The position numbers and the translations under genes were made by a program. From the NCBI GenBank assembly GCA_000146465.1, contig CP001947.1: a DNA stretch of 64,000 nt; one strand, 5' to 3'. Below are positions 11,722 to 47,583 of the stretch, piece after piece. Each line of letters begins with the position of its first letter. Within the stretch, counting starts at the first letter, position 1. The notes under the pieces are model-generated. The model was not told the origin of the DNA. It ran no database searches and saw only the letters and a program-made list of their open reading frames with translations.

Positions 11722-12278
11722 ATGAAGTTTTCTCGGATAGTTATGATGGGGCCGCCAGGATGTGGAAAGGGAACCCAGTCTAAGCTTATATCTGAAAGAT
11801 ATGGAATTCCCCACGTGAGCTCTGGAGACATTATACGGGAAGAGATGATGAAGAGTAAGTTAGGGTAGTAATTTTAGACACCAAGGAAGCAGAAATAGTT
11901 AGAGAGATTGTTAACTCAGGAGGATTGGCTCCTAACGAAGTTGTGAATAAACTGGTGCTGAAGAAGATTCGAAGCATGGATAGGTATATTCTCGATGGAT
12001 ACCCCAGAAGAACCGACCAGGCAGAAATGCTGGGAGACAGTGTTGACCTAGTGATATTTATTGATGTGGACAAGGATACATGCATTCATAGGATCTGCAA
12101 GCGAAATCATGGAAGGGATGATGATGAGGAGGAGGTTGGAAGAAAGAGATATGACGTCTACACGAAGGAAACAATGCCTATACTTGAGCTGTATAAGAGC
12201 TATGGAAAGATAGTAAGGGTGGATGGGAATGGTTCTCCCGAGACCATATTTTCTAAGATCTGCGGAATTATTGAATGA
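11722..12278 (+). CDS. adenylate kinase, two exons join(11722..11854,11878..12278)
   Basis: Exon 1 encodes the P-loop [10 protein letters not shown]...[10 protein letters not shown]; splicing out a 23-nt intron gives ...[30 protein letters not shown]...[11 protein letters not shown]...GRDDD... in frame with ORF 11925..12278; canonical AK motifs throughout. Confidence 0.85.
11855..11877 (+). other. spliceosomal intron, 23 nt (gtaagttagggtagtaattttag)
   Basis: GTAAGT 5' splice site, TAATTTT branch-like element, AG 3' end; removing it restores a continuous adenylate kinase reading frame. Confidence 0.8.
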
Positions 12279-26550: not shown

Positions 26551-27873
26551 ATGGAGACTGCAAGGAAGATAAGGAGACACAAAATACTTGCATATGCACT
26601 GACTGCGGTGGAGGCCATGGGGCTGTCTGTGGTGGTTAAACAGGCCGTCAGGAATCCGCTTAGAGTTCTTTTGAATCCACCGAAGGGCCTTGTGCGAGGT
26701 CTGTGTTCCATCCCTACTATTATGCTATGGATTGCCATATACATATACCTTTCGGGGAAAGTTGCACAAGAAGCAGGAAGGCCTCGGACGGTCATCTTCT
26801 TCTATCATCTTACCTCACAGATAATGTTTTTGGGGTACCTTTCCAAGCCGGGTTCAGATGTTGGAATGAATAGTAGATGGGTCACGCTTATACCAACAAA
26901 CGGATGTTCTGTATACAGCGTGGCTCTTTCCATATCCTCGGCAACACTCCAAACATATATTGAGGAGATTCTATGGATGAAGCCAAGATACACACGAGTT
27001 AGAGGATTGTTCAACTACATGGGAAGAAGTATAGGAGTGATGGTGCGAGACATGTTTTATCTTTGTATTGGCAGCGAGTTCATGGCAATAGGTGCTCTTA
27101 CGATGTGCTTGGTAGTCTCGAAGACTCTGTTTCCATGGTCACGCCTTGGACCTTTCTGGTTATTCCAGGGAACAGCTTGGAGGATGTCTGGGGGGTTTTT
27201 GGCTGCCAACATCTCTACTGCTGCTTATTTTCTTCTGATGAGTGCCATTGATAGGCTTCTAACTTACAACATGTCACTGATGAATCTTGGCTTGGGCGAC
27301 TACTGCTGTAACGAGGAGGAGAGCATCAACACCTCAAGACTGAGGTTTTTCCAGATATCCGAGCTTTCAATGAAATATCCCGAGGTTTTCAAAAAGGTGG
27401 CAAGATCAAACAAAGCTGTTTCGTCCCTTGGGCTGTATGTCCGTAGAGAAGAAAGAGAGATTTTAAAGATCATGGAAACGATGAGGAGAGAGAGGGAAAC
27501 ACTTGAGTCCCGAATGTGGTTTTCTGTTCCCCAGATCACCCAACCTCTAGACAAACCAAAGGCGTTGGTTGTTCAAAGAAAAGTTCAGTTTGTAAAGAGA
27601 ATAAGATCGTATAATTTCATTGAGATTCTTGCATCCAGGATCGTATACTTCTTTAAGATACGTATTTTGATTAATAGATACAAGGGCACCAGAAGACCGT
27701 TCCTTCTGGTAAAGAGCTTTATGAAGTTTCTAGAGAAATATAGAAGGGACTACCTACTTCTCAAGGATCTTGACGAGACGTTTGAGGCCTCGATGAAGAA
27801 TCTGCACAACGAAATCTCCAACACCGAGGAGGTGATTGGGATTGGTCTGGAGTCGGAGCTGTTCTGTAAGTAA
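26551..27873 (+). CDS. hypothetical membrane protein
   Basis: ATG with CCC 13 nt upstream; several hydrophobic segments; basic C-terminal half. Confidence 0.45.
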   Translation: METARKIRRHKILAYALTAVEAMGLSVVVKQAVRNPLRVLLNPPKGLVRGLCSIPTIMLWIAIYIYLSGKVAQEAGRPRTVIFFYHLTSQIMFLGYLSKPGSDVGMNSRWVTLIPTNGCSVYSVALSISSATLQTYIEEILWMKPRYTRVRGLFNYMGRSIGVMVRDMFYLCIGSEFMAIGALTMCLVVSKTLFPWSRLGPFWLFQGTAWRMSGGFLAANISTAAYFLLMSAIDRLLTYNMSLMNLGLGDYCCNEEESINTSRLRFFQISELSMKYPEVFKKVARSNKAVSSLGLYVRREEREILKIMETMRRERETLESRMWFSVPQITQPLDKPKALVVQRKVQFVKRIRSYNFIEILASRIVYFFKIRILINRYKGTRRPFLLVKSFMKFLEKYRRDYLLLKDLDETFEASMKNLHNEISNTEEVIGIGLESELFCK

Positions 27874-27962
27874 CCTCGGGGCTGTTAATAAAGTTTTGGA
27901 TCTTCTAGACTACTGTAAAGGTTTCATAGGAATGATAATTGAGACACAAGGATAAACAAACA

Positions 27963-30299
27963 ATGGGGATCAAGGATACGTTTGGAATGGAAGGGATAAG
28001 AAGACTCTTTGAAAGAGGTTCGTTTGTGGAAAATCCCCTGGGCAAGTCATTGATTGTGAAGCATCTTTCGTCTCTGAATTCCAAGAGGCAGATCAAAGGG
28101 GCAAGGAGTCTGGTGAGCAGGATGCAGCGTGGAGAAGATCTCTTTGAGCTCTGTAATGATGTCATCAAGGCGATGGACACAAGAGATCCCGAGCTCAAGA
28201 GAATGCTCAACCTGTATCTGGTGAAGTATGTGCAAGGATGGCCTGCAAAGCAACTGATATGTATCAACACCGTACTGAAGGATCTTGGAGACGTAAATAG
28301 CGAAATGCGACATTGTGCAATTCAAGATAGTGGGCTGCTAGGAGACGGAGCAGTGATCAAAAACTATGTTAATCCTCTCAAGGAGCATGGGGTTAGTGCG
28401 CTGCCTGAGACAAGAAGGAAGGTAGCAGACTCATTGAGGAACTATTTCAGGAAAGATCCCCGTTTGTTCCATGACGAAGACCTTTGCGATCTACTGAGAG
28501 ACTTGGTGTTTGACGAGGATGCAGGTGTGTGTGCATCTGCACTAAATAGCGTTCAAGCCATAGAGAAGGAGACAAGAGTCCTTTCTACCAAAGACATCTA
28601 TATCCTCTTTGGAAAGGCCATTAAGACAGGAAACAGGGAAATCCTTGGAAGTCTTCTGGAAGTGATGAATAACAGAGCAGAGGACTTCCTTGATGCTGCT
28701 CCATTGGTTCCATTGTTGAGATCGTGTAGCCTTCGGATATTCCGTCAGGCATCTGATCTGGCCATTTCTATCGATCCCTCTTACAGGCAAATTGTGTTTG
28801 ATCACCTCAAAGGGTTTCTTAATTCAAAGGACGAGGAGTTGTATCTTGTACTTGACTATGCCGAGTCTCTTCTTGATCATGTGAAGTACGACAATTCATG
28901 CTTTGCCATCTACCACAGCGACAGGAAATACAATAAGATAAAGAAGCTTAAGATTCTATTCAAAAGGCTGGATAGCATCTCTGTGTCGGAAATAAAGAAC
29001 CAATGCAGAGATGAAGAACTTCTTGGAGTGATTTTGAAGGAGTCTCTTATTGCAGACTATCTTATAGAGGAGCCGTTCAAATACATACGCAAGGCAGATG
29101 AAATAATAAGAGTTCTGTACAGTGAAGATGCTATTTCAGAAAAATGGTCGGGACTGATTGAAAAATTCTTGATGAGTGCGAGGGAAGTGCAGGAAAGGCA
29201 GAAGTATATCTATCTCTGTGGGAGATATGTCCACGAGATTCCTTCAGAAGTTATAAGAATCCAAAGTCTGTACATTCCTTCTCTAGTCAACGAGACGGCC
29301 AGGTTTTATCTTAGCCTCCATAGAAGAGGAGTGGTAAATCTGGAAGAGACCCTAGGGCACCTCCGTCTGGTACAGAAGAGCCCAAAGGACAGAATCCGAG
29401 CAGTGATCAATGAACTGAAGACCCGGGGAATAGGAGTGTTTTCAGCATTTTGTGACATCAAAAAGCGGGATCTGAACAGCACTAAAGCCTGTAGATCTGT
29501 TGGGATAAAGTATGAGGAAAAGACCACTTCGATACTCGATGGCAAGCCATACTATGGACTAAGTGAAGATGGATTTCTAAGGGAAAATTCTGGAGAAGCA
29601 TTGGAGAAGTTCCGCGAAGAGGAGAAATCTCTACGTGAAGAATGCTCTTCTCTTGAAAGAGGAGAGACACAAACAACCGAGCTCTCTTCTGCAGGAGAGA
29701 GTAGTCCATTTCCAGGAAATGGCTCACAATGTCCAGCTCTGTTCTTGGGCAAGGAAGACGAGGAAAATGTTTGGCTGAGGTTTGCTGAATCTCATCGTCC
29801 TGTTGAAGGTAAGAGGGCCAAAGAGAAGGAATCCACCAGGCTGATAGACACCCTTGGGCTAAAAGGGATTCTTGCCATTGCTGGTGAAGAGGTTATACTT
29901 CAAGTGGATGTGCTAGAAAGTCCATTGGTTATTTATTACAGGTGTAAGGGGCGACTCAACAGTATCAAAATAGACGGCGAAGGGACTTTTTCTCTTTTCA
30001 CAATAGGTCTTCCAGTAATCAACTCGGAGTTCAGCCTAACAATAGGAAAGTCCAACTACGAAATCTACCTGGGAATCAGAAGCTTGATGAATCCATTTGA
30101 GTGCTCGAAGGATGAGTTTGAAAGGAAATTCCATGAGCTCAGAGACCACATACTCCTAGGGGAAATCGACACTGGGAAGGCATATGCCGTCGACAACCAT
30201 CGGTTCTCATTTTCTGTCCTTGGCTCAAAATTCTACGGAAAGCATCTCAATGGACAGGCAATCCTCAAAGGCCCGAGGAAGCTGTTGGGACTCTTTTAA
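27963..30299 (+). CDS. adaptor-protein complex large subunit (adaptin N-terminal domain, beta-adaptin-like)
   Basis: KRMLNLYLVKYVQGWPAKQLICINTVLKDLGDVNSEMRHCAIQ and LCDLLRDLVFDEDAGVCASALNSVQAI align to the beta-adaptin HEAT region; ORF-track start 27939 is TTG, first ATG about 27963. Confidence 0.65.
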   Translation: MGIKDTFGMEGIRRLFERGSFVENPLGKSLIVKHLSSLNSKRQIKGARSLVSRMQRGEDLFELCNDVIKAMDTRDPELKRMLNLYLVKYVQGWPAKQLICINTVLKDLGDVNSEMRHCAIQDSGLLGDGAVIKNYVNPLKEHGVSALPETRRKVADSLRNYFRKDPRLFHDEDLCDLLRDLVFDEDAGVCASALNSVQAIEKETRVLSTKDIYILFGKAIKTGNREILGSLLEVMNNRAEDFLDAAPLVPLLRSCSLRIFRQASDLAISIDPSYRQIVFDHLKGFLNSKDEELYLVLDYAESLLDHVKYDNSCFAIYHSDRKYNKIKKLKILFKRLDSISVSEIKNQCRDEELLGVILKESLIADYLIEEPFKYIRKADEIIRVLYSEDAISEKWSGLIEKFLMSAREVQERQKYIYLCGRYVHEIPSEVIRIQSLYIPSLVNETARFYLSLHRRGVVNLEETLGHLRLVQKSPKDRIRAVINELKTRGIGVFSAFCDIKKRDLNSTKACRSVGIKYEEKTTSILDGKPYYGLSEDGFLRENSGEALEKFREEEKSLREECSSLERGETQTTELSSAGESSPFPGNGSQCPALFLGKEDEENVWLRFAESHRPVEGKRAKEKESTRLIDTLGLKGILAIAGEEVILQVDVLESPLVIYYRCKGRLNSIKIDGEGTFSLFTIGLPVINSEFSLTIGKSNYEIYLGIRSLMNPFECSKDEFERKFHELRDHILLGEIDTGKAYAVDNHRFSFSVLGSKFYGKHLNGQAILKGPRKLLGLF

Positions 30300-46428: not shown

Positions 46429-46524
46429 GGGATGAAAATGGTGCTGAATAGTGGCTACCCCAGGGCGAGGAGGAAAGGCCCTGGAGGCCGAAGGATATCT
46501 TGAAAAATTTGCAGCCCCAGGAAA

Positions 46525-47413
46525 ATGGTAAGTGGCACATGGTAATTTTAAGAGTAATGCAAAGGGGACCAGGAACTACCACAAGAACTTCCAGGTGAAG
46601 AGAAGAAGAAGACGAGAGGGCAAGACCGACTACAAGCACAGAACCAATATGATTCGACAGGATTCCAACTCATACGGGTCTGTGAAGCACAGGCTGGTTG
46701 TCCGGATTACAAAGAGCCGGGTGATTTGCCAGATCACAGGAGCCTACATGGATGGAGACCGAGTGATGGTGTATGCAGACTCGTCTGAGCTGAAGAAGTA
46801 TGGAATCAACTTTGGGCTTACAAACTACTCTGCAGCATATGCAACTGGATTCCTGATTGGAAGAAGGGCACTGACAGCATTGTCTCTGGATGGAGTATAT
46901 GGGCCCAAGGAGATTGACGGGACATACAGTATTACGGAGGATGTTGATGGAGAGAGAAAGGCGCCCAAGGTGTTCCTCGACATTGGACTTGCAAGGTCCA
47001 CAAAGGGAGCAAAGGTGTTTGGAGCAATGAAGGGAGCATCTGATGCAGGACTGAACATCCCACACAGCGAGGTGAAGTTCTATGGGTACCAAGAGGATGG
47101 GAGCTTTGATGCAAAGGAGCTGCACGACAGGATTTTTGGATACAACGTCTCTGAGTACATGCAGAAGTTGCGGGACAGTGATGAAGAGAAGTACAAGACC
47201 CAGTTTTCAGACTATATCAAGAAAGGCATCTCGGCCGAGGACATTCCACAGATCTACAAGAGTGCTCTGGACAAGATTGCATCAGACCCATCGAAGGAAG
47301 CAAGGGAAGTGAAGGACTACTCTTCGCTTAAGAAGTACCGGCCGGTTCGACTTACATATGAGGAGCGCAAGGAGAGGATACAGGCCAAGCTTTCCACGAT
47401 TGAGAGCGAATAA
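46525..47413 (+). CDS. RPL5: 60S ribosomal protein L5 (uL18), two exons join(46525..46527,46553..47413)
   Basis: The ORF track begins at a GTG with an in-frame TAA immediately upstream. The ATG at 46525 is followed directly by gtaagtggcacatggtaattttaag; after splicing, [28 protein letters not shown]... matches the eukaryotic L5 N-terminus. Confidence 0.85.
46528..46552 (+). other. spliceosomal intron, 25 nt, immediately after the start codon
   Basis: GTAAGT...GGTAATTTTAAG; shares the ...GTA(GT)AATTTT(A)AG 3' element with the adenylate kinase intron; needed to give RPL5 an ATG and its conserved N-terminus. Confidence 0.75.
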
Positions 47414-47511: not shown

Positions 47512-47583
47512 GACGGTGTGGCGCAATGGTAGCGCGTCGGATTCCAGTCCCGAAGGTTCTAGGTTCAAATCCTAGCTCCGTCA
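47512..47583 (+). tRNA. tRNA-Trp (anticodon CCA)
   Basis: GACGGTG-TGGCGCAATGGTAGCGC-GTCGGATTCCAGTCCCGAAG-GTTCT-AGGTTCAAATCCTAG-CTCCGTC-A; A box TGGCGCAATGG, B box GGTTCAAATCC; anticodon loop TTCCAGT; very close to the metazoan/fungal tRNA-Trp consensus; T-rich tract downstream. Confidence 0.85.

Follow-up and report, generated by a model that had tools for sequence, protein, structure and literature searches.

Two short plus-strand segments of the 64,000-nt stretch analysed here (the window), one interrupting the adenylate kinase (AK) gene at 11855–11877 and one directly after the start codon of the ribosomal protein L5 gene (RPL5, uL18) at 46528–46552, are almost certainly canonical U2-type (major spliceosome) GT-AG mini-introns of the Encephalitozoon class. 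Both segments carry splice signals, their removal restores the reading frames of the two genes, the spliced products match deposited proteins exactly, and the arrangement is conserved across species. Judged by exact identity to ADM11665.2 and ADM11690.1, the sequence is that of Encephalitozoon intestinalis ATCC 50506. Spliced AK and RPL5 proteins are both present in three further assemblies, and the window's G+C content of 43% fits a compact genome. An earlier note, made from the sequence alone, had recognised an Encephalitozoon-type microsporidian genome, and the protein identity to E. intestinalis ATCC 50506 shows that recognition to have been correct. Both introns already stand in the public E. 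intestinalis annotation exactly as described here, so that nothing about them is new; against the GenBank entries ADM11665.2 and ADM11690.1, the spliced translations showed full-length identity and no difference.

The AK gene cannot be read as one open reading frame. From its ATG at 11722, the unspliced frame runs out of the P-loop exon into a stop codon at 11866–11868, which leaves an ORF of 48 aa, much as the earlier note had described. The bacterial-style ORF list divides the gene into this 48-aa frame (11722..11868) and a TTG-started frame of 117 aa (11925..12278). Removal of positions 11855–11877 gives an unbroken 177-aa protein instead. Its exon 1 (11722–11854, plus strand) is 133 nt long, that is, 44 codons plus 1 nt of the 177-aa spliced frame, and encodes the P-loop; it is followed by a 23-nt, phase 1, GT-AG intron (11855–11877, plus strand; gtaagttagggtagtaattttag) and by an exon 2 of 401 nt with the stop codon counted in (11878–12278, plus strand). 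The spliced protein matched the Pfam ADK profile from position 1 to 150 of 151 without a break (E=1.8e-38), and an exact-sequence look-up found it identical to ADM11665.2, annotated as 'putative adenylate kinase' of E. intestinalis ATCC 50506. The proposal that taking out 23 nt repairs the gene therefore holds, with the junction as originally written. A full-text literature search returned no relevant paper on an adenylate kinase intron in Encephalitozoon. In all Encephalitozoon species, CCCC stands directly 5′ of the AK ATG.

RPL5 shows the same kind of interruption at a different place in the gene. Exon 1 (46525–46527, plus strand) consists of the start codon alone, the intron (46528–46552, plus strand; gtaagtggcacatggtaattttaag) is 25 nt long, in phase 0 and bounded by GT and AG, and exon 2 (46553–47413, plus strand) comprises 286 codons and the stop. 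Without positions 46528–46552 the gene encodes an unbroken 287-aa protein that is 100% identical over its 287 aa to ADM11690.1, the 60S ribosomal protein L5 of E. intestinalis ATCC 50506, so the ATG at 46525 is indeed cut off from the body of the gene by 25 nt, as had been claimed. This protein matched Pfam Ribosomal_L5e over 1–163 of 163 profile positions (E=4.1e-70) and also matched the L18 C-terminal domain. The ORF list assigns RPL5 a GTG pseudo-start instead (46532..47413); together with the shortened AK, this confirms the earlier remark that the ORF track miscalls both genes. A tRNA-Trp(CCA) gene lies at 47512–47583 on the plus strand, approximately 100 nt 3′ of the RPL5 stop codon.

We then considered the splice signals themselves. 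Both segments begin with GT and end with AG. In AK, the 5′ splice site GTAAGT (11855–11860, plus strand) is unchanged in every orthologue and is the complement of the U1 snRNA 5′ sequence ACUUAC. The putative branch-point motif and 3′ splice site together form TAATTTTAG (11869–11877, plus strand), which shows no change in four species; within it, TAATTT occupies 11869–11874, in agreement with the E. cuniculi motif TAAYTT (PMC2483917), and the AG of the 3′ splice site 11876–11877. The RPL5 intron, on the same strand, has a 5′ GTAAGT, TAATTT at 46543–46548 and AAG at its 3′ end. TAATTT thus ends 1 nt (AK) and 2 nt (RPL5) before the AG dinucleotide, an offset also given as 2 and 3 nt to the first A of TAG and AAG, respectively. 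TAAYTT is the putative branch-point motif in 13 of 13 accepted E. cuniculi introns, nine of which have it as CTAAYTT (Irimia and Roy 2008, PMC2483917). The base before the motif is thus C in 9/13 E. cuniculi introns, whereas it is G in both AK and RPL5. The earlier note had the two introns share GTAAGT...GGTA(GT)AATTTT(A)AG; GTAAGT and TAATTT followed by 1–3 nt and AG are kept in the orthologues, but the GG is not conserved.

To judge these signals against chance, observed and expected numbers were compared. GTAAGT by itself is not enriched in the window (14 occurrences versus 19.5 expected), nor is TAATTTTAG at up to one mismatch (14 versus 22.5 expected), and the longer element GGTARTAATTTTAG, with two matches at up to two mismatches versus 0.78 expected, is not significant alone. 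The combination GTAAGT-N(5-30)-TAATTTT behaved differently: on both strands of the 64-kb window it had two matches, exactly the AK and RPL5 introns, where dinucleotide-preserving shuffles give an expectation of 0.06, and none of 100 shuffles contained two. Since neither half is enriched, it is the combination, and where it is placed, that carries the signal. The commonness of GTAAGT and of TAATTTTAG-like strings in the window might invite the view that the two matches are unrelated chance occurrences, but the combination occurs at these two sites only, was not seen twice in any shuffle, and in both cases lies on the coding strand exactly where the frame needs repair, which leaves that view with next to no probability.

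Comparison of the AK loci of E. intestinalis, E. cuniculi, E. hellem and E. romaleae showed the same layout in all four Encephalitozoon species. Exon 1 measures 133 nt and exon 2 401 nt, together they encode 177 aa, and the intron between them has 23 nt and is identical in position, phase and length. Intron positions 1–6 (GTAAGT) and 15–23 (TAATTTTAG) are unchanged, and all differences fall in the middle 8 nt, at positions 7–14. In the spliced frame, third codon positions hold most of the substitutions between E. intestinalis and E. cuniculi in both exons, with 2/5/20 at first, second and third positions in exon 1 and 33/19/68 in exon 2, indicating purifying selection on the two exons as one reading frame. 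These results bear on the reading of AK as a frameshifted pseudogene, or as a sequencing error in the assembly, with splice-like motifs that are coincidental. Such a reading would account for an unspliced frame that ends after 48 codons. It would have to explain, however, why four species that were sequenced independently share a 23-nt insert with unchanged GTAAGT and TAATTTTAG at one and the same place, why substitutions on either side of it fall mostly at third positions of the spliced frame, and how a motif combination expected just 0.06 times per window came to be there. Purifying selection on both exons speaks against pseudogene and assembly error alike, and we regard this reading as extremely improbable. 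Beyond Encephalitozoon, exon 1 of Ordospora pajunii AK is also 133 nt long, and the orthologous position holds a 24-nt segment, GTAAGTGGCAGCAAATAATTTTAG, with perfect intron signals.

The mini-intron reading extends to the relatives of RPL5. In E. hellem a 25-nt intron directly follows the start codon (ATG|GTAAGTGGCTACGATTAATTTCAAG|), and in Ordospora colligata the intron at the same place has 28 nt (ATG|GTAAGTGAATTGCTGAGATAATTTGAAG|). ATG-GTAAGTG and TAATTT-N-AAG are conserved, and the length difference is an indel confined to the middle. This conservation helps to weigh the alternative that both genes are bridged in translation, AK by programmed frameshifting or ribosomal bypassing and RPL5 by non-AUG or downstream-AUG initiation, with no RNA splicing. 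In favour of this alternative, unspliced mRNA would be abundant, in that E. cuniculi transcripts with short introns are mostly unspliced, with mean splicing below 20% (PMC6349667), and the RPL5 ORF is open from 46532. AK, however, has no slippery site and no bypass signal, and perfect spliceosomal signals are conserved in their place. In RPL5, ATG-GTAAGT is kept out to Ordospora, and the earliest in-frame ATG of exon 2 lies 39 codons into the ORF and encodes M34 of the spliced protein. The Pfam L5e match begins at residue 12, upstream of M34, so that initiation there would remove the first 33 residues, a conserved N-terminal stretch in which the L5e domain begins. Translational bridging is also at odds with RNA-seq data from E. 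cuniculi, in which all annotated introns, as a set, are spliced (Grisdale et al. 2013, PMC3629993). Taken with these points, it is a very improbable explanation. The low splicing level in E. cuniculi also means that many unspliced E. intestinalis reads would not argue against splicing.

AAATTT-like transcription signals are a feature of microsporidian genes. In E. hellem and Ordospora colligata, the region 5′ of the RPL5 ATG (46494–46527 in the window, GATATCTTGAAAAATTTGCAGCCCCAGGAAAATG) shows strong conservation, and the pattern TTGAAAAATTT..AGCCC..AAAATG is kept out to Ordospora. By its letters, this upstream stretch resembles the AAATTT-like and CCC-like transcription signals of microsporidia; a CCC/GGG transcription signal is mentioned for microsporidian genes (PMC5499648).

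Under the mini-intron reading, U1 snRNA would pair with the perfect GUAAGU 5′ splice site, and the UAAUUU branch sequence, 6–7 nt upstream of the 3′ AG, would be bound by U2. The branch adenosine is predicted to be the second A of TAAT, at 11871 in AK and 46545 in RPL5. Excision would join 11854 to 11878 in AK and 46527 to 46553 in RPL5, yielding the full-length proteins. The 5′ end of Encephalitozoon U1 snRNA carries ACUUACC (Belkorchia et al. 2017, PMC5499648); for the snRNA pairings and actual splicing in E. intestinalis, we infer from the literature on E. cuniculi.

That literature places the two introns in a well-described set. The 2001 description of E. cuniculi listed 16 introns of approximately 25 nt, usually right after the ATG of ribosomal-protein genes, and the 20 introns added in 2010 show no 5′ bias and are found mainly outside ribosomal-protein genes (Whelan et al. 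2019, PMC6349667). The E. cuniculi short introns (Katinka et al. 2001; Lee et al. 2010; Grisdale et al. 2013) have the same GT-AG ends, GTAAGT and TAAYTT near the AG, at 22–30 nt. Both placements recur here, the RPL5 intron following a ribosomal-protein ATG and the AK intron being internal to a non-ribosomal gene, and orthologous positions are common. We found no substantial difference from the E. cuniculi short introns, of which the AK and RPL5 introns are the E. intestinalis orthologues. That mini-introns right after the ATG of ribosomal-protein genes are an Encephalitozoon hallmark, as the earlier note had stated, agrees with the published description (PMC6349667) and with the orthologues. 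Encephalitozoon introns range from 22 to 76 nt, with a short class of approximately 25 nt (PMC6349667, PMC3629993), and the AK (23 nt) and RPL5 (25 nt) introns fall inside this range. Microsporidia also have long conserved introns of approximately 76 nt, found in the genes for poly(A)-binding protein and RPS23 (Whelan et al. 2019), which share the same spliceosome and the same genomes; they are three times longer, contain an internal conserved stem-loop and are approximately 80% spliced (PMC6349667). By analogy, the AK and RPL5 introns would count among the short ones, which are poorly spliced. Yeast-type introns (Irimia and Roy 2008) likewise combine a strong 5′ splice and branch consensus with a branch site near the 3′ AG, but they are several-fold longer and use TACTAAC (UACUAAC) as the branch sequence, compared with TAAYTT in the AK and RPL5 introns. 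Strong splice-signal consensus is a convergent trait of intron-poor eukaryotes (PMC2483917).

Looser models (GT[AG][AT]G[TAC]...TAAYT[TC]...AG and [TA]AAT variants) returned only noise in the 64-kb window, that is, sites that fell within long uninterrupted ORFs or on the non-coding strand. One intron-like segment of 28 nt at 27866–27893 on the plus strand (GTAAGTAACCTCGGGGCTGTTAATAAAG) was rejected as a chance match: it overlaps the TAA with which the gene at 26551–27873 naturally ends, it has no TAAYTT, and excising it would not bring the next ORF into frame; the gene that follows starts with an ATG of its own at 27964. Four ATGs in the window have GTA[AT]G immediately after them, and of these the RPL5 site alone has the 3′ motif. 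A search of the window against Rfam at gathering thresholds gave one tRNA as the sole match and no snRNA gene. Two introns in 64 kb fit the fewer than 50 introns reported per Encephalitozoon genome (PMC5499648).

Deposited gene models of AK differ among the sister genomes. E. intestinalis and E. hellem have the full 177-aa protein, and so does E. cuniculi GB-M1 (CAD25425.2). The models of E. cuniculi EcunIII-L (KMV65961.1; L001:1378-1934) and E. romaleae SJ-2008 (AFN83153.1; L003:1378-1934) have 136 aa. They begin at an ATG just 5′ of the 23-nt intron and lack the P-loop, which is encoded by 41 codons upstream in the same frame. In both strains an in-frame ATG lies 123 nt farther 5′, after CCCC, and gives a 177-aa protein. 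KMV65961.1 and AFN83153.1 thus look like truncated annotations. In the O. pajunii AK gene (L007:801-1364), the 24-nt GTAAGTGGCAGCAAATAATTTTAG lies at L007:934-957, has a length that is a multiple of 3 and contains no in-frame stop. The annotated protein (XP_060276723.1, 187 aa) translates through it, giving the insert GKWQQIIL. Going by the sequence, this segment may be an intron missed by the annotation, or one that can be retained without loss of the frame.

The value of these results lies mainly in quality control, as they show how a bacterial-style ORF track miscalls eukaryotic genes with mini-introns. They leave the published picture of Encephalitozoon introns unchanged, and their marginal value is in the annotation inconsistencies of the sister genomes. 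An idea that we consider unlikely is that the AK intron has been retained in evolution since its inefficient splicing regulates the gene, and that the O. pajunii version is part-way to becoming coding sequence. Intron retention in AK would have different outcomes in the two genera: in Encephalitozoon, translation would end after a 48-residue P-loop peptide, and in O. pajunii it would yield a full-length kinase with an 8-residue insert.
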